Positions 16,709 to 40,313 of a stretch of DNA of 40,313 nucleotides are shown here, in pieces. Position 1 is the first letter of the stretch, and each line of letters begins with the position of its first letter. The translations under genes were made by a program, and so were the position numbers. A model generated the notes under the pieces. It was not told the origin of the DNA, did no database searches, and was given only the letters and a program-made list of their open reading frames with translations. The stretch comes from Escherichia phage Mt1B1_P3, in the sequence record MT496969.1; one strand, written 5' to 3'.

Positions 16709-16936
16709 TTAAATCATACTCATTAGGACGTATCCCTCAGCGATGTCACCAACGTCAGCAATGTGGACAACCTTACGTGCTACCTGTTGTCCAGTATACC
16801 CGTTGTCCCACTCATTCAGGATAAGCCAATCGCCAACCTTAAAGTCCCGGTCGTTAAGTCTCAGCTCTGCTGTCTTTAGACCTAGTTGTACCGGACCAAA
16901 GTGCTGGCGGTGAATCTTCAGGTTGTGACTAGCCAT
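16709..16936 (-). CDS. Small ASCH/PUA-like (DUF3850-like) protein inserted between tail tubular genes
   Basis: 75 aa MASHNLKIHRQHFGPVQLGLKTAELRLNDRDFKVGDWLILNEW...: HxLKIxxxxFxxVxxGxKTxExRxNDRDxxVGDxLxLxEW pattern typical of DUF3850. ATG overlaps gp11 stop (TAATG), GGAGGG RBS. No T7 counterpart at this position. Confidence 0.75.
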   Translation of the reverse strand: MASHNLKIHRQHFGPVQLGLKTAELRLNDRDFKVGDWLILNEWDNGYTGQQVARKVVHIADVGDIAEGYVLMSMI

Positions 16937-22927: not shown

Positions 22928-23794
22928 TTACATGGGTGGTGTCCACAGGATGACCTCCTTGGACTTAGGGTCATAGTCGGAGGCTCGACAAATACGAGCG
23001 ACCTGAGCTTGGACCAGAAGTTCCTCCTCGGTCATCCCAGCTTTAGCAGCCAGAGTAACCATGCAGTCCCACAGCGTCATGTCTTCACGCTTTGGATACT
23101 TCTTCCACTCAGTCTTAATCTGGCCTTTGTTCTTGCCAGTCTTAAGCTCACGGCTCTCCTGCACGAAGTAGTACGGCTCGTCAAGGAACACACGAGTGGT
23201 GTCCTCACCCATCCCCGGAATCCCGCCATAGCCATCTGTAGTGTCACCCTTGATGGTCTGCTCCATGTGCCAGTAGTCTGCCTCGGCAGTCGTATGACTC
23301 AGTATTTCACCAGTGGTTAACCAGAAGAACTCACAGTTTGGGATGGTCTTGAAGTCCTTGTCACAGGACACCAGAACCGCATGGTCACATCCGACAATCT
23401 GAGGTCTGGTCCCGATGATGCCCATACAGTCATCACCCTCAAGCGTAGGACGCAGGAAGCTGTTGAACCGTGGGTCAGCCATCACTTCGGCTACGAACTT
23501 CTTGTAACCTACAGGCTTGCGAGAACCTTTACGGTTGGCCTTATAGGTAGGCAGGATGGACTTGCGCCAGTTCTCATCATCGGTGAAGCACATCACAATC
23601 TTAGCGTCTTTCCACGCCTTGCGCTTCTTAACGATTTCAGCGATGGTGTTCTCAAGGATACGACGAGCCTTGGCGTGGTCGCAGATAAGGGTATAAATAT
23701 CATCGCCCCAGTCTGTCTCGTCCTCGGCAGCAGCCATAGAAGAGAAGACCAGATAGTCACCATCCAGAACCAGAGCTATTTTCTTCTCTGACAT
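22928..23794 (-). CDS. 6: 5'-3' exonuclease gp6
   Basis: 288 aa; aligns with T7 gp6 (LVxDGDxLVF, CDHAKARxILE, KANRK, CDKDFKTIPNC, WDC...KAGMTEE); AGGAGG RBS. Confidence 0.95.
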   Translation of the reverse strand: MSEKKIALVLDGDYLVFSSMAAAEDETDWGDDIYTLICDHAKARRILENTIAEIVKKRKAWKDAKIVMCFTDDENWRKSILPTYKANRKGSRKPVGYKKFVAEVMADPRFNSFLRPTLEGDDCMGIIGTRPQIVGCDHAVLVSCDKDFKTIPNCEFFWLTTGEILSHTTAEADYWHMEQTIKGDTTDGYGGIPGMGEDTTRVFLDEPYYFVQESRELKTGKNKGQIKTEWKKYPKREDMTLWDCMVTLAAKAGMTEEELLVQAQVARICRASDYDPKSKEVILWTPPM

Positions 23795-24012
23795 TATGCC
23801 TCCTCAACGATGCAAACTGAAGAGAAGGCACGTACCGTTTCGACTTCCTCGGTCATTCCCTTCCAGCGGATATACGTCTCGTGTTTGATGGCTACCGACT
23901 TTGGCATTACCCGGGCTACTTCCCCTATACGCATAGCGTATGACTTACCAGCTAGGCAGAAAGCAACTTTTTGACCTACCTTAAGTTCTCGGCCTGATAC
24001 GTCTTGACTCAT
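23794..24012 (-). CDS. Hypothetical basic protein at the gene 5.9 position (not gp5.9-like)
   Basis: 72 aa MSQDVSGRELKVGQKVAFCLAGKSYAMRIGEVARV...; GGAGG RBS; coupled ATGA/TAATG overlaps on both sides. Unlike acidic T7 gp5.9. Confidence 0.65.
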   Translation of the reverse strand: MSQDVSGRELKVGQKVAFCLAGKSYAMRIGEVARVMPKSVAIKHETYIRWKGMTEEVETVRAFSSVCIVEEA

Positions 24013-24218: not shown

Positions 24219-24487
24219 TGCTTGAACCTCGTGCTGATATTGTAGACCTCTTGCAACTTGTCTTTCAGTTGTGACGCCAGAATAGACTTCAGGTGCAGCT
24301 CAATAGCAGCTTCGACCCCATGCTCTACAGCAGTCTCTACCAGCTTCCGTGCCATGCCATCCAGTTTCTCACCGGAGACATAAGCCTTGGTAATCTTCAC
24401 CAGCTCAAGAACGTATGACTCCACGTCCTCAGGCGTAAAGACAATCTTCATGTCAAACTTACAGGTCAGGCGTTTGGTCATAGCCAT
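24215..24487 (-). CDS. 5.5: gp5.5-like protein (H-NS binding in T7)
   Basis: About 90 aa starting MAMTKR (T7 gp5.5-like N-terminus); ATG at 24487 overlaps DNAP stop (TAATG) with AAGGAG upstream; track ORF starts at an upstream GTG. Confidence 0.65.
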   Translation of the reverse strand: MAMTKRLTCKFDMKIVFTPEDVESYVLELVKITKAYVSGEKLDGMARKLVETAVEHGVEAAIELHLKSILASQLKDKLQEVYNISTRFKQ

Positions 24488-26658
24488 TAGTGACACTCCT
24501 TCCACGTTGGTCCAATCTTACCTTCGGTATCAAGGACACATTTAAAGTTATAGAACTCACCCACCTTACGCATAGCAAGTTGAGCAATCTTGACGACTTC
24601 TTCGGCAATCTCCTGAGTACGACACGCAATCTGTAGCTCATCGTGAACCCAAGCCATGTACGCAAAGTCACCTTCCCAGCCGTGAACATACCCGGCATCT
24701 TCGAGCATACGTTCAGTCTCGACAATCCAGTGCTTACAGACTACCGCACCATCGCCTTGAAGTAAGGCGTTAAGTGCTGAGTGTGGAGACCGGATGTGGA
24801 TACGCCGACCATCAAGTCCACGCAACCAACGGCGTTTCCACTTGACGATGTTCTCTCCGTCCACCCACTTAGAGTCTGAGATTAACGTATCACTCACAGC
24901 TTCCCTGAGGTCCTTGATGGCTGGTGTGCCCTCAATGAATTTCTTCATGAGAGCTGAACCTTCCTTCTTACCACCGCCAACTATCAGTCCAATCTTCGCG
25001 GCCCCTGCACCATACAGGAACGCATAGATGAACGTCTTAGCGTTATTACGGAAAGCATCATGGTCGTGGCTCGACTTGTCGCGTGGGACGTTAGGTGCTA
25101 ACCCAGCGTTTACTGCGTTGGCCCAGTGTATGTCCCCTTCGACCACAGTCTTCGCATAGTCTCCACCATCAAACGGAGCCGCTCGGTTCCCTAGACAACG
25201 AAGCTCAAGACCTGAAGCATCCACGCCTACTTGAATCCAAGGGTCTGGCTTACCATCCGTCTTGTTCCAAGCTGCACCGAAAGCACCACGGCAAGTCTCA
25301 CCGTATGGAGCACCGTTAGCCGGGACTTGAGCCATGTTTGGTGAACTGTGAGTCGCACGTCCGGTTACTGCCCCGCATGGGTTTATTGAACCGTGCATAC
25401 GTCCGTCTGGACCTACAAGTTTCAACCATGCGTTCTTACCTTCAGCAGCCTGACCGATGCGCTTCTGGACTACCAGATACTCACGGACCAGCTCTACGCA
25501 AGCCTGAGCCTCTTCGTCTGGCAACTTAACGTGTTCTAACGTCTCGTCATCGACCACAGGTTTCCCGGTGTCAGTGAAGTCCACAGGCTCCCAGCCACGC
25601 TCCATCAGAACTTTCGCTAAGTGGTCCCCGCTTCCCGGATTGAACTCAACGTAAGTGATAGGTGTGAATGGTGCTCCCTCCATCGTGTCTCGCGTATCGC
25701 GTTCACAAGGTTCAAGACCTAAGCGTTGAGCTTTGTTCTTCGGCTTCTTAAAGATGCCACCGACCTTAGGATACACGACTCTCGGATACTTCGGAAGGTC
25801 CTTGCCTGTACGTGGGTGCTTGAAGAACTCCTTTCCGCCCTTTGGTGCGTACCAGCTACCGAAAGTCGAACGCAGCTTGTCCAGCAACTCTGCACGTTTG
25901 ACGGTGAGTTCACGATATAAGCCTTCGACCATCTCGGTGTTCATCGGATAGCCGTTACGCTCCATCTTCGCACAGGTCCACGCAGCATCGTGTTCCAGAC
26001 GCAACGCATAAATCTGGTCGAAAGCGAACTGTTCAGACTGGAAGTAATACTTGTCAGTCAGGAACTTCTTGAACAACGCCAGTGTGACCACAACGTCTTG
26101 AACGTTATAGTCCAGCATCTCCTGAGACGGGAACAACCATTCGTCCCCAGCCTTATATTCGATACCTTCAGCCTTGCATTTGGCAACGTAATCGTGTTTG
26201 TACTCACCCTTCATCTCACCGAGACGATAGCCCCAAGCCTCAAGAGACTGACGTCCCATCATACTAGGTGGCAGACGACCAGATTTCACTGCGCCCATGT
26301 CTGAGAACTTAATGTTTGGATACATCAAGCGGCCCAGCACCAAGGTATCAATCATCTTGTGTTTCGGGAAGTTAAAGCGTTTCCCAAAGTACAGACGTTT
26401 CAGCTTGTCTATAGCAGGGACGTCATAGTTGATACCGTTATGGAATACCAGCATACCATCAGGTGATGCGGCAATCTCTTCCACTTTATGAACATACTCT
26501 TTGAAGCCACCGACGATACCGACCATCGGAGCTACCCCATACTTAAGGGTCTCATTCGACTCGGCGTTAATCAGGACCCCACAGTGAAACTGGGAGACTG
26601 TATCAAGGAGACCGTTGGTCTCGATGTCAGAACCCCAGATACTCTTAAGGTCAAACAT
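24487..26658 (-). CDS. 5: DNA polymerase gp5
   Basis: Collinear with T7 DNAP (DIETNGLL, FHNGxxYDVPA, GKPxPKYPR, GDFAYMAWVHDE, LDTEGKxGP). Start placed at ATG 26658 (MFDL...) with GGAGG RBS; track start 26694 is an upstream GTG. Confidence 0.96.
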   Translation of the reverse strand: MFDLKSIWGSDIETNGLLDTVSQFHCGVLINAESNETLKYGVAPMVGIVGGFKEYVHKVEEIAASPDGMLVFHNGINYDVPAIDKLKRLYFGKRFNFPKHKMIDTLVLGRLMYPNIKFSDMGAVKSGRLPPSMMGRQSLEAWGYRLGEMKGEYKHDYVAKCKAEGIEYKAGDEWLFPSQEMLDYNVQDVVVTLALFKKFLTDKYYFQSEQFAFDQIYALRLEHDAAWTCAKMERNGYPMNTEMVEGLYRELTVKRAELLDKLRSTFGSWYAPKGGKEFFKHPRTGKDLPKYPRVVYPKVGGIFKKPKNKAQRLGLEPCERDTRDTMEGAPFTPITYVEFNPGSGDHLAKVLMERGWEPVDFTDTGKPVVDDETLEHVKLPDEEAQACVELVREYLVVQKRIGQAAEGKNAWLKLVGPDGRMHGSINPCGAVTGRATHSSPNMAQVPANGAPYGETCRGAFGAAWNKTDGKPDPWIQVGVDASGLELRCLGNRAAPFDGGDYAKTVVEGDIHWANAVNAGLAPNVPRDKSSHDHDAFRNNAKTFIYAFLYGAGAAKIGLIVGGGKKEGSALMKKFIEGTPAIKDLREAVSDTLISDSKWVDGENIVKWKRRWLRGLDGRRIHIRSPHSALNALLQGDGAVVCKHWIVETERMLEDAGYVHGWEGDFAYMAWVHDELQIACRTQEIAEEVVKIAQLAMRKVGEFYNFKCVLDTEGKIGPTWKECH

Positions 26659-26681
26659 GGTTAATCCTCCGTTTAGTCTAA

Positions 26682-26719
26682 TCATAAAGGCCACTCGCTG
26701 TGAATGACCTTGAGTCTAG
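26682..26719 (-). promoter_or_regulatory. Putative RNase III processing hairpin (R4.7-like) upstream of DNAP
   Basis: Second copy of ATAAAGGCCAC-N-ATGACCTTGAGTCTA element. Confidence 0.45.
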
Positions 26720-26721
26720 AC

Positions 26722-28601
<1,880 letters not shown>

Positions 28602-28648
28602 TCACTCCTTAATCACAAATGCGAACAAAGGGACAGGACTAATTGTCC

Positions 28649-28671
28649 CATCCCTAAGGTGATAGTTTAGG
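28649..28671 (-). promoter_or_regulatory. Variant phage promoter upstream of gene 4, followed by 5' hairpin
   Basis: Minus strand CCTAAACTATCACCTTAGGGATG (two changes at -4/-3 vs consensus); transcript would begin with GGGACA-N8-UGUCCC hairpin (plus 28630-28649). Confidence 0.5.
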
Positions 28672-28882
28672 CTTTGAAGAACTGAGCCAACTGGTCAGCT
28701 TTGGTATCAGCCTGACGAGCCTTCATTCCAGCTTCCAGTGACGCGATGGTCAGCTTGTCAGCCAGAGCAGCAGCATCAGCCGCACCGTCCGCATTCTTCT
28801 TTTCTACCTTTCGTTCCAGTACCGCAGCACGACGATACCCACGCACCACCAGACGACCAAGAAATTCGATAATTTTAATCAT
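28667..28882 (-). CDS. Hypothetical 71-aa protein (Ala/Lys-rich, predicted helical)
   Basis: MIKIIEFLGRLVVRGYRR...ADAAALADKLTIASLEAGMKARQADTKADQLAQFFKA; ATG with AAGGGAG RBS; occupies the slot of T7 gene 3.8 but unrelated to HNH endonuclease. Confidence 0.6.
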   Translation of the reverse strand: MIKIIEFLGRLVVRGYRRAAVLERKVEKKNADGAADAAALADKLTIASLEAGMKARQADTKADQLAQFFKA

Positions 28883-28906
28883 TTGGTTGTTCTCCCTTAG
28901 AGTTTA

Positions 28907-29365
28907 TTAACCACGGTCGGAAGTGACCAGTTCATTGGTAGACAGCCAGCGTTGCAAGTCAAAACTTGGACACGCCTTAGGTGCTACGTCATGGTGTGCT
29001 TTGATTTCTGCCTGAGGATACAGGACCTTCAGGTCAGCCAGCTTGTTGCGCAGGGAGTTCATCTGGGCTGGAGTGAAGTTAGCTTCAAACTGACCCTTAG
29101 CGTCAATTCCACCTACAAGGCAGACGCCTACTGACCGGGAGTTCCAATCCTTAACGTGTGACCCTACGACATTTACCGGGCGACCCTCTTCCACAGTACC
29201 ATCACGCTTGATGATAAAGTGGTAGCCTACATCCAGCCAGCCTTGCTGCTTGTGCCACATACGGATGGTCTCTACCCCGATGTCCATCTCTGGCTTGGTA
29301 GCCGAACAGTGCACGAAGATAGCGTCAGTCCGGGACCGTGGGTTGAACTGTACCTTACTTACCAT
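28907..29365 (-). CDS. 3.5: Lysozyme / N-acetylmuramoyl-L-alanine amidase gp3.5
   Basis: 152 aa; near-identical blocks to T7 lysozyme (DAIFVHCSATKP, WLDVGYHFIIKRDGTVE, VGVCLVGGID, KACPSFDL, NELVTSDRG). Confidence 0.96.
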   Translation of the reverse strand: MVSKVQFNPRSRTDAIFVHCSATKPEMDIGVETIRMWHKQQGWLDVGYHFIIKRDGTVEEGRPVNVVGSHVKDWNSRSVGVCLVGGIDAKGQFEANFTPAQMNSLRNKLADLKVLYPQAEIKAHHDVAPKACPSFDLQRWLSTNELVTSDRG

Positions 29366-29825
29366 TGTACACCACCAGTTCTACTACCACAAGATTCAGA
29401 TGTGACTGGAAGCGCTGTGCGTCAGTCGTGTGCATCTGTAGCCGCTTGTGGTTGAATACGTGAGAGTTGCTAATCTTCACGTACACTTCGTCAGGCTTAC
29501 CGTGGACGATGAACGTCTGGCCTACACCAATCTTGTTGATGGTCAGGACTTCACGTTTAACGGTGACAGGAGGGACGCTTGAGGCTGGTAGGACCTGAGG
29601 TTTATCCTCTACGATTTCCTCAAGATTTTCGTTTACAACCCACGCCCCCCACATACCATCAGGCTGAGTGTTATGACCTGCTGCTCCGTGTTTGTATGTG
29701 CCACGCTCAGTGGATTCCACCAGAGTATGTCCGTTTGATGGTGCAGGGTCTTTCGCACATTTCGTAACGATAGTGCCTTTAGGCCACCCGTAGCCACTAA
29801 CCTTAAGTCTATATTTCTGAGTCAT
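29355..29825 (-). CDS. Hypothetical 156-aa protein inserted between endonuclease I and lysozyme
   Basis: ATG overlaps gp3 stop (TGATG) with AAGGAG 7 nt upstream; 3' end overlaps lysozyme start by 11 nt. No recognised motif. No T7 gene at this position. Confidence 0.7.
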   Translation of the reverse strand: MTQKYRLKVSGYGWPKGTIVTKCAKDPAPSNGHTLVESTERGTYKHGAAGHNTQPDGMWGAWVVNENLEEIVEDKPQVLPASSVPPVTVKREVLTINKIGVGQTFIVHGKPDEVYVKISNSHVFNHKRLQMHTTDAQRFQSHLNLVVVELVVYNGK

Positions 29826-30277
29826 CACTTAACTCCTTTCTTCTTGGGGATGAGGATACCTGAAGGCAGACGTACAGTCGCCTCTTTCAGCCACTCAACC
29901 GGGATGAACTTATCGGCATACTTATAGCCATTCTTTTCACACCATGCGCCATACGTGGTCGGAGACCCTTTGTATAGCTTGGAGCGGGAACTTGAGAACA
30001 CGAACCGGATGTCTAACTCTGGGTGCTGTTCTCGTACCAGAAGGTGCTTCTTACGGTCATCACTATCGAAGATACCTTTGGTCTCCACGATGATACCGTT
30101 AGGAAGGATAAAGTCTGGTGTATACTTGTGGTCGGAAGCCGGAATCACATAGTTGATATAATGGCTTTCGTACTCCGCTTTGACGCCATTCTGTTCCAGC
30201 CACTGCTGGTTCTTGGCTTCAAGTCCAGAGCGGTAGGCACCCACAGAGTGCCCCCGTTTTGCAGACCATTGGGCCAT
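29825..30277 (-). CDS. 3: Endonuclease I (Holliday junction resolvase) gp3
   Basis: 150 aa; aligns with T7 gp3 (GAYRSGLE, YVIPASxHxYTPDFxLPNGIxVETKG, DDRKKHLLxREQHPELDIRxVFSSSRxKLYKGSPT). Confidence 0.96.
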   Translation of the reverse strand: MAQWSAKRGHSVGAYRSGLEAKNQQWLEQNGVKAEYESHYINYVIPASDHKYTPDFILPNGIIVETKGIFDSDDRKKHLLVREQHPELDIRFVFSSSRSKLYKGSPTTYGAWCEKNGYKYADKFIPVEWLKEATVRLPSGILIPKKKGVK

Positions 30278-31278: not shown

Positions 31279-31506
31279 TTAAGCATATCTGTTCACCATT
31301 ACACAGTCGTCAGAATGGTCATACTCCTCTACCTTAATAATAATACTAGGAGTCTTCGTATAAGCAAACGGTAGGAGGTCATAGTCACAATATTCGCTGT
31401 GTCCTAATGAGAACTCTAACATACCCTTACGCAGCGCCTTATATGCTCGATAAAACCTGAGTGATCTACGCTTCACCCCTACAGCTTTAAGTTCTTCATA
31501 CGTCAT
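31279..31506 (-). CDS. Hypothetical protein (gene 1.8 position)
   Basis: 75 aa ORF, ATG start overlapping end of gp1.7; no recognised motif. Confidence 0.55.
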   Translation of the reverse strand: MTYEELKAVGVKRRSLRFYRAYKALRKGMLEFSLGHSEYCDYDLLPFAYTKTPSIIIKVEEYDHSDDCVMVNRYA

Positions 31507-31936
31507 AGCACTTACCTTTATGCAGGTCGAACAGCTCCTGATAGAAGGCCGCTTTGTTTAGGTCCTTCTCCATAGTTGCTAGCTCTGACTTCTTACCAGC
31601 TCGGAGTCGATACTTCAGGACGTTACCCATGCAGAACCCACGTAACTCGCTGACAGTCATTGACCGAGCGATAATCTCAATGGATTCCACACCGTCAAAG
31701 ACCTGATAGTGAGATGGCTTACGGACGCTATCTTCCTGACCTATGGTTGTCGGCTCGGACTGCGCCTGCTTGGTAATACTTAAGGAACTAATGGAGTGAG
31801 TGAGTGGTTCAGATAAACGGGGCCACTTAACAACAGCCACATGCTCATTCTTAACCACTATCACCTTGCCACAGGAGCGTCCCGTGTGGGCTTCAACTGG
31901 TCCAACATAGTTAACTGTATCCCCCACCTTAACCAT
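31496..31936 (-). CDS. 1.7: gp1.7-like protein (DUF3310-type, putative nucleotide kinase)
   Basis: 146 aa; C-terminal PSHYQ...IEIIARSMT...GFCMGNVLKYRLRAGKK...MEKDLNKAAFYQEL pattern characteristic of T7 gp1.7 family; strong GAAGGAGGTGA RBS. Confidence 0.65.
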   Translation of the reverse strand: MVKVGDTVNYVGPVEAHTGRSCGKVIVVKNEHVAVVKWPRLSEPLTHSISSLSITKQAQSEPTTIGQEDSVRKPSHYQVFDGVESIEIIARSMTVSELRGFCMGNVLKYRLRAGKKSELATMEKDLNKAAFYQELFDLHKGKCYDV

Positions 31937-37902: not shown

Positions 37903-38250
37903 TTACACTTCCACCGATACAGTGGTCATCTTGCTTACAGTCAGCCCACCAGCAAGCTCAACCGCATAGCGTATCGCCTCCTCTTTGGACTTGAAGTCCT
38001 TTCCTGCAAGGTGGTAAATATCACCTGTTATTACCTTAGAAGGCCGGCGACTCACCGCAATGGCGTTTTCCATGGCAAGCTCACCACGGATATACTGAGT
38101 AAACCAGCGCTTCACCGAACTCGTTCCCACCCCGAACTTTTGGGCGGTTTCAGTCACCCTATCCATAACTCCCTCAGGCAGAGAGGTGTAGTAGTTAACA
38201 ACGTTGAGTTTAAATGCTACCGAGAATACATTGCGAGTTTTAGCAGTCAT
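37903..38250 (-). CDS. Early protein with transposase-type helix-turn-helix N-terminus (115 aa)
   Basis: FSVAFKLNVVNYY...TETAQKFGVGTSSVKRWFTQY resembles the IS3/IS911 OrfA HTH signature (FSxEFKLxVV...G.S...V..W..Y); GAAGGA RBS. Confidence 0.65.
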   Translation of the reverse strand: MTAKTRNVFSVAFKLNVVNYYTSLPEGVMDRVTETAQKFGVGTSSVKRWFTQYIRGELAMENAIAVSRRPSKVITGDIYHLAGKDFKSKEEAIRYAVELAGGLTVSKMTTVSVEV

Positions 38251-40111: not shown

Positions 40112-40313
40112 AGAGACTCAAAGAAGACCTATAGCCTCTACCTATCGTCCTTCCATAAGCCATAGCCTAGACCTATCGTTGACCTGAAGTCCTGACCATC
40201 GGTCCAACCTTATGACAGACTGGCTGTGACTGCAAGGAGTAGTAACGGGTAGGGCCTTTGGTCTGGACTTAAAGAGGGCCTATGGGGAGACTTGAGGTTC
40301 TTGAACTGTGAGA
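40112..40313. repeat. Right direct terminal repeat (DTR)
   Basis: Identical to bases 1-202. Confidence 0.85.

Follow-up and report, generated by a model that had tools for sequence, protein, structure and literature searches.

In Escherichia phage Mt1B1_P3, the gene that separates lysozyme from primase-helicase encodes a 71-residue protein that belongs with gp4.3 of phage T7, a homology that sequence comparison supports well, and the idea that this gene has taken the place of the T7 HNH endonuclease gene 3.8 is not supported. The protein corresponds to gp3.7 of phage K1F and is predicted to form a single long helix. The absence of homing endonucleases from this genome is a separate matter and is best treated as normal variation.

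The window, that is the whole 40,313-base stretch of record MT496969.1 that was analyzed, is the complete genome of a T7-like phage, a K1F-like Kayfunavirus, bounded by an exact 202-bp direct terminal repeat. Its genes lie on the minus strand throughout, its tail spike is a K1F-type endosialidase, and a 3.5-kb test stretch is 98.4% identical to Escherichia phage vB_EcoA_ASO2B (ASO2B). The ORF of interest occupies 28667..28882 on the minus strand, with its ATG at 28882 and its TAA at 28667-28669, and its 71 codons translate as MIKIIEFLGRLVVRGYRRAAVLERKVEKKNADGAADAAALADKLTIASLEAGMKARQADTKADQLAQFFKA. A strong Shine-Dalgarno sequence, AAGGGAG (28892..28898, minus strand), is read 9 nt upstream of the ATG and is kept in K1F and in Escherichia phage pO2. 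The upstream neighbor is the gene 3.5 lysozyme/amidase (28907..29365, minus strand; Pfam Amidase_2, E = 2.4e-16; phrog_822, E = 6.5e-80) and the downstream neighbor is a T7-type gene 4 primase-helicase (26898..28598, minus strand; Helic-prim_T7_N, Toprim_2 and DnaB_C; phrog_239, E = 1e-231), so the placement of the ORF in the original prediction was correct. Since the gene was recovered by tblastn in 191 phage records (184 of the 191 at a coverage of at least 80%) and its dN/dS against K1F, CR44b and pO2 is 0.15-0.39, its sequence marks it as a real gene and not a chance ORF. Truncated natural alleles also occur (EcoDS1, 31 aa; P0058-P0072; several of 40-57 aa), and EcoDS1 and the other phages that carry them are otherwise intact. 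Purifying selection together with frequent natural truncation fits a useful but non-essential gene.

The protein is 94% identical to K1F gp3.7 (YP_338106; CKV1F_gp17), from which it differs by a few substitutions only, and the two genes are alike in length, in position between genes 3.5 and 4, in Shine-Dalgarno sequence and in the promoter-like element downstream. The ASO2B_022 product is 100% identical to it. ASO2B_022, CR44b gene '4.3' and SH4 gp20 are the Kayfunavirus orthologues of K1F gp3.7, all of them hypothetical proteins, and both the gene and its family are already catalogued. Beyond the genus, the Mt1B1_P3 protein matched phrog_1950 over its full length (E = 8.3e-25, 1-70/70), and T7 gp4.3 (NP_041979) matched the same profile, also over its full length (E = 6.3e-31). 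Pairwise identity to T7 gp4.3 is about 30%, and BLASTP aligned the two proteins from end to end at 34% identity (E = 1e-5). When alignments of the two sub-families were compared by hhalign (18 sequences for gp3.7 and 13 for gp4.3), residues 1-70 aligned with residues 1-70 at 97.3% probability and E = 2.2e-11. Nine positions, M1, I5, G9, L11, V13, A62, L65, F68 and F69, are invariant in the joint alignment. Both ends of the family are strongly conserved, as an N-terminal motif M-h-K-h-I-x-x-h-G-x-L-h-V and a C-terminal motif K/Q-A-x-Q-L-x-x-F-F, and T7 gp4.3 shares M-x-K-h-I-x-x-L-G-x-L-h-V-R-x-Y and Q-L-x-x-F-F with the Mt1B1_P3 protein. Additionally, the two proteins are close in size (70 aa in T7 and 71 aa in Mt1B1_P3), and each is the product of a stand-alone class II gene adjoining gene 4.

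Pfam alone would not place the Mt1B1_P3 protein in DUF5471, the Pfam family of T7 gp4.3 (169 bits, E = 2e-50). The Mt1B1_P3 protein aligned with that model over 1-69/70 at 15.2 bits (E = 0.027), below the gathering threshold of 25 bits, and a precomputed Pfam match was found for none of its Kayfunavirus homologues. The DUF5471 model was built on close T7-type members. With T7 gp4.3 as tblastn query, the Mt1B1_P3 genome returned a match to the first 16 residues only (E = 0.06). Pairwise searching is too weak for the gp4.3 family, and a Pfam scan is insufficient unless PHROGs and hhalign are used with it. A literature search for DUF5471 found no paper that mentions the name.

Map position is a habit of the gp4.3 family and not a criterion of homology. 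The order in T7 is 3.5, the phi3.8 promoter, 3.8 (HNH), 4, 4.3, 4.5, 4.7 and 5, and that in T3 is 3.5, 3.7, a promoter and RNase III site, 4, 4.3, 4.5 and 5; a metagenomic relative (locus L011) has 3.5, 4, DUF5471, TA_inhibitor (4.5) and 5. In all Kayfunavirus records examined (Mt1B1_P3, K1F, CR44b, SH4, EcoDS1 and ASO2B) the family gene precedes gene 4, and no gene 4.5 partner was found in these records. What follows gene 4 in these genomes is only an unrelated gene of 54 aa that K1F-lineage annotation names 'gp4.3' (26722-26919, minus strand, in Mt1B1_P3; phrog_13039). In T7-type genomes gp4.3 is accompanied by gp4.5, whereas tblastn and the Pfam matches listed gave no homologue of gp4.5 (TA_inhibitor) or gp4.7 in Mt1B1_P3. 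Because the gp4.5 partner is absent, the functional context of the Mt1B1_P3 protein may differ from that of T7 gp4.3.

The signals before gene 4 place the gene more precisely. A predicted phage-RNA-polymerase promoter-like element, CTAAACTATCACCTTAGGGAT (28650..28670, minus strand), overlaps the stop codon of the 71-aa gene and has three mismatches to the K1F consensus, which fall in the -3 to -1 region. The genome has 10 matches to this consensus, every one on the minus strand, where chance alone would give 0, and a promoter is annotated at the corresponding place in CR44b and EcoDS1. Between this element and gene 4, a terminator-like scan identified a G+C-rich hairpin followed by TTTGTT (28630..28649, minus strand; RNA fold -23.4 kcal/mol, z = -2.8), which would be a terminator or else an RNase III-type site; ASO2B has an annotated terminator here. 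In T3 the phi3.8 promoter and the R3.8 stem-loop stand in the same relative place as the Mt1B1_P3 element and hairpin. The 71-aa gene is therefore in the position of T3 gene 3.7, upstream of the signals, and not in that of T7 gene 3.8, downstream of the promoter, and because the two slots lie on opposite sides of the promoter they are not equivalent.

T3 gp3.7 (NP_523314, 35 aa) shares with the Mt1B1_P3 gene the map slot between 3.5 and the promoter and stem-loop. It was considered as a homologue and rejected, since this Cys-rich 35-mer, MRMICIRCDKPLKSRVPSRQCQCKDPIKAEEHTEK, bears no resemblance by eye to the 71-aa protein. The true family member of T3 is T3 gp4.3, which is encoded downstream of gene 4. 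The K1F name 'gp3.7' appears to be positional and borrowed from the T3 slot. The CR44b annotation already names the family gene '4.3'.

The original prediction described an Ala/Lys-rich helical protein, and both composition (16 Ala and 8 Lys among 71 residues) and modeling agree with this. From an alignment of 29 family members, AlphaFold2 predicted one uninterrupted helix covering residues 2-70 with a mean pLDDT of 94.9, a value that for a lone helix says nothing on packing. The hydrophobic moment of the sequence is highest at 100 degrees per residue, a level reached by 57 of 2000 shuffles. When 1.84 billion representative proteins were searched by profile, the family came to 47 representative clusters, all of them small, single-domain, stand-alone proteins, and the lengths of family members group at 69-71 aa (n = 41) and 76-78 aa (n = 11). 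One member (P0100) lies on a contig of 511 bp. The Ala/Lys/Glu-rich middle of the family is variable and in some members is longer by about seven residues, or one heptad; the Kayfunavirus variant P0057 carries a seven-residue duplication. Conserved ends, a heptad step in length and a variable middle together would be the pattern of a coiled-coil rod with functional ends.

A comparison that has been proposed for T7 gp4.3 is with IF1, the mitochondrial F1-ATPase inhibitor. Like IF1, the 71-aa protein is short, is predicted as one long helix and could pair as a coiled coil. The protein matched nothing in the PDB, whether by structure or by sequence. Foldseek with the helix model returned 0 matches in the PDB, IF1 included, a comparison in which a lone helix carries little structural information, and a profile search of PDB sequences returned noise only (Rop, E = 0.67).

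The explanation that we favor, and hold to be fairly probable, is that the protein is dispensable and non-enzymatic, forms a coiled coil and acts by binding a protein of the host or of a defense system. The gene, genuine and presumably expressed, would be a dispensable class II gene of the DNA-metabolism period, and its product would be a stand-alone protein of about 70 residues, modeled as one long amphipathic alpha-helix. This rod would most plausibly self-associate in a coiled coil, its conserved ends binding and inhibiting a host protein; catalysis would not be expected. Studies of T7 bear on this explanation. Genes 4.3-4.7 can be deleted from T7 (PMC12664982, PMC9825161). Furthermore, a genome-wide knockout preprint reported that deletion of gp4.3 lowered plating by ~70% on cells carrying Pluralibacter gergoviae RADAR and RdrD, an effect of less than 10-fold that is weak and comes from this single preprint (PMC11482910). 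The plating defect was rescued by complementation, and T7 gp4.3 was proposed, as to mechanism, to be an ATPase inhibitor on the basis of its structural resemblance to IF1 (PMC11482910).

A broader version of this proposal is that the whole gp3.7/gp4.3 family is a widespread single-helix coiled-coil inhibitor of host ATPase-based defense such as RADAR. We regard this as a speculative extension that is unlikely to hold. If it did hold, contact with the target would be made by the N- and C-terminal motifs, the heptad-stepped variable middle would serve as a spacer, and the Kayfunavirus move upstream of gene 4, in genomes that do not have gp4.5, would represent a variant that differs in timing or in target. 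An anti-RADAR role for the Mt1B1_P3 protein specifically is doubtful at best, the phenotype being reported for T7 gp4.3 only (PMC11482910).

Alternatively, the protein could be a replisome accessory of the gene 4 primase-helicase, for example a helical adaptor, and not be directed at the host or its defenses. The family gene adjoins gene 4 in both orders (upstream in Kayfunavirus; downstream in T7, T3 and L011) and is transcribed with DNA-metabolism genes, as this explanation would predict. Adjacency is nevertheless weak evidence in a compact, collinear genome, and for one distant family member (P0118, locus L010) no gene within ~2 kb upstream or 4 kb downstream encodes a primase-helicase domain. 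T7 gp4.3 is also dispensable on laboratory hosts (PMC12664982, PMC9825161), and truncated alleles persist in otherwise intact phages. Taken together, these points make a replisome role unlikely.

Somewhat less likely still is a remnant, decaying or without function, that persists only because the promoter and processing signals before gene 4 run into the 3' end of the ORF. The overlap of the stop codon with the promoter-like element and the existence of truncated alleles (31 aa in EcoDS1, 40-57 aa in several others) would suit a remnant, but a dN/dS of 0.15-0.39 would not. Moreover, Kayfunavirus members of as little as 54-65% identity still have the full-length frame, the invariant end motifs and the Shine-Dalgarno sequence, and T7-type phages, in which the gene has another position and is not tied to this promoter, retain them at ~30% identity. 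A binder of a host or defense protein, conserved at both ends, remains our preferred explanation for the gene.

The original prediction also recognized no HNH homologue elsewhere in the genome, the slots of T7 genes 5.3 and 7.7 included, and this was borne out by three kinds of evidence. First, tblastn of both strands with T7 gp2.8, gp3.8, gp5.3 and gp7.7 and a Kayfunavirus HNH protein gave a best E value of 0.25. Second, a Pfam search of stop-to-stop stretches on both strands (150 on the plus strand, with a minimum of 52 aa; on the minus strand, 98 of 50-200 aa and 14 longer) gave no HNH, GIY-YIG or LAGLIDADG domain among the matches listed, one result set listing 25 families down to E = 0.0088. 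Six-frame scanning for HNH and GIY-YIG domains, which had been suggested with the prediction, thus recovered neither in the stretches covered, from 50 aa upward for the minus strand and from 52 aa upward for the plus strand. Third, the known homing endonuclease slots in Mt1B1_P3 are closed. Genes 2.5 and 3 overlap by 1 nt, genes 5 and 5.5 by 19 nt and genes 18.5 and 19 by 4 nt, only 11 nt separate genes 7.3 and 8, and gene 5 is a single uninterrupted frame.

The nuclease families that were found belong to gene 3 (endonuclease I), gene 6 (an exonuclease domain) and the terminase (an RNase H-like domain). The finding named in advance as counting against the prediction was an endonuclease domain in any ORF. 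Read literally, gene 3 (29825-30277, minus strand; Phage_endo_I, E = 2e-81) supplies one, but endonuclease I is a Holliday-junction resolvase and not a homing endonuclease, and the prediction stands where homing endonucleases are concerned. It stands for the 71-aa protein as well, which matched no HNH profile in Pfam or PHROGs and for which the model is all-helical. A 115-aa early protein (37903-38250) was considered as an endonuclease remnant and rejected, as it shows sub-threshold N-terminal helix-turn-helix matches and no nuclease part.

A homing endonuclease might still be present in a form too divergent, too short or too little described to be recognized, with gp3.2 (156 aa; 29355-29828, minus strand) as the leading candidate. 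This protein has no Pfam family, is encoded beside gene 3 and near the site of the T7 gene 2.8 endonuclease, and roughly half of it is modeled with low confidence. Its confidently modeled N-terminal domain, however, appears to be a small beta-barrel for which the matches are SH3-like and weak (best E = 0.24) and include no nuclease fold, and its sequence contains no HNH or GIY-YIG motif. In addition, gp3.2 is conserved across the genus and not sporadic, and the known homing slots of the genome are all closed. We reject gp3.2 with modest confidence, its C-terminal half being poorly modeled, and consider a hidden homing endonuclease of any kind very improbable.

Comparison with a close relative shows how an HNH gene can come to lie in this region. 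Escherichia phage pO2 is 94.5% identical to Mt1B1_P3 here and has an ORF of 102 aa between lysozyme and an intact gp3.7 homologue. That ORF is an HNH_3 protein (E = 1.4e-15) of the phrog_99 HNH endonucleases, and it served as the positive control for the Pfam search. In a three-way alignment of Mt1B1_P3, pO2 and K1F, the pO2 insert falls inside the 24-nt lysozyme/gp3.7 spacer (28883..28906, minus strand, in Mt1B1_P3), and homology starts again at the Shine-Dalgarno sequence of gp3.7, GGAGAACAAC..ATG; the empty, unoccupied site is common to K1F and Mt1B1_P3. MirsaeidiM_Esher2 likewise has an HNH gene beside an intact gp3.7. The pO2-type HNH gene occurs at an identity of at least 98% in two records only, and remoter copies lie at other sites in other genomes. 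All that the 71-aa protein has in common with T7 gp3.8 and the HNH_3 endonucleases is a rough location on the map, in the interval from lysozyme to gene 4. Those enzymes have the beta-beta-alpha-metal fold, whereas the 71-aa protein is modeled as all-helical, has no sequence similarity to them and contains no HNH motif.

Homing endonuclease genes are mobile insertions. In Kayfunavirus they are sporadic and occupy several sites, present or absent among close relatives. In K1F itself, gene 5 is in two joined parts and an HNH gene lies inside its span; in CR44b a homing endonuclease is predicted before gene 5. The K1F gene 5 insertion has been described as a putative group I intron, one that is absent from phage SH3 (PMC4925675), and in Hafnia phage Ca a homing endonuclease gene before gene 19 is polymorphic in one and the same stock (PMC8861465). 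With such gain and loss among close relatives, an endonuclease-free Kayfunavirus is ordinary. The missing HNH genes would need an explanation separate from that of the 71-aa gene, as mobile insertions for which Mt1B1_P3 carries the empty alleles.

The one part of the original prediction that failed, namely that the 71-aa gene replaces gene 3.8 as a different cargo in the same mobile slot, is scarcely credible: the gene does lie between lysozyme and gene 4 like T7 gene 3.8, in a region that is a hot spot of variable small genes, but it is upstream of the promoter-like element while T7 3.8 is downstream of phi3.8, it is conserved in ~190 phage genomes and not sporadic, it sits intact beside an HNH gene in pO2 and MirsaeidiM_Esher2, and its homologue in T7 is gene 4.3, which exists there side by side with 3.8.

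The finding has little importance beyond annotation, as it concerns a catalogued hypothetical protein from a well-sampled genus in which the absence of endonucleases is normal variation. For annotation it matters that names in the K1F lineage mislead: K1F 'gp3.7' is the true homologue of T7 gp4.3, and the K1F-type 'gp4.3' and T3 gp3.7 are not. The lysozyme/gp3.7 spacer, occupied in pO2 and empty in Mt1B1_P3, K1F and others, provides a pair that could be used for studying HNH homing in Kayfunavirus. Finally, ~190 natural sequences are added as a second, diverged set for follow-up of the reported anti-RADAR effect of T7 gp4.3, and they show constrained residues at both helix ends and a middle that tolerates a seven-residue insertion.

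The 'gp3.7' and 'gp4.3' labels used in annotation of the K1F lineage are swapped with respect to homology. The true homologue of T7 gp4.3 is the gene named 'gp3.7', which lies between the lysozyme and primase-helicase genes. The small gene called 'gp4.3' in this lineage, located 3' of gene 4 (26722-26919, minus strand), is assigned to phrog_13039 and is unrelated to T7 gp4.3. A third small gene of this region lies within gene 4 itself, where a 99-aa ORF (26870-27169, minus strand) overlaps the primase-helicase coding sequence in another frame. T7 gp4.2 matches this ORF by tblastn (E = 5e-11, 40% identity), indicating that the embedded gene 4.2 has been kept in both T7 and the genus.

A distant member of the gp4.3/gp3.7 family, P0118 (76 aa), is encoded at 2113-2343 of L010, a contig from Logan SRR13494420. 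An HNH_3 gene is found approximately 0.9 kb downstream of P0118, and no primase-helicase domain was detected in the genes from about 2 kb upstream to about 4 kb downstream of it. Thus, the family does not invariably adjoin gene 4.

Between the endonuclease I and lysozyme genes lies the gene for gp3.2 (29355-29828, minus strand; 156 aa), a protein that is conserved throughout the genus and has neither a Pfam family nor a counterpart in T7. The AF2 model confidently predicts an N-terminal beta-barrel (residues 1-72), with weak, exclusively SH3-like matches, and is unreliable for the C-terminal half.

The 5.7-like gene is separated from gene 6 by a 72-aa gene of phrog_2251 (function unknown; 23794-24012, minus strand). 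In contrast, the 98%-identical phage ASO2B lacks a counterpart, and there a 69-aa gene is followed directly by the exonuclease gene. A 75-aa protein with a DUF3850/ASCH domain (E = 2e-19) is encoded between tail tubular genes 11 and 12 (16709-16936, minus strand). Since ASCH domains are usually associated with RNA binding, this position inside the structural module was unexpected.

In the gp1.7 region, a 146-aa protein (31496-31936, minus strand) carries a DUF3310 domain at its C-terminal end and hits PHROGs with a nucleotide kinase annotation. The protein encoded at the equivalent place in ASO2B is longer, with 180 aa. A 115-aa early-region protein (37903-38250, minus strand) displayed N-terminal helix-turn-helix matches, all sub-threshold (BrkDBD, E = 4e-4; HTH_28; ISL3-type HTH), together with a weak match to the phrog_151 transposase, and may be an early DNA-binding regulator.

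Exact copies of a 202-bp direct terminal repeat occupy 1-202 and 40112-40313, demonstrating that the window is the entire linear genome. Within it, the DNA polymerase gene (24487-26694, minus strand) is a single unbroken frame, whereas the K1F gene (NC_007456, 12921-15690) is interrupted by a putative group I intron with an HNH endonuclease (PMC4925675). Mt1B1_P3 therefore carries the intron-less allele.
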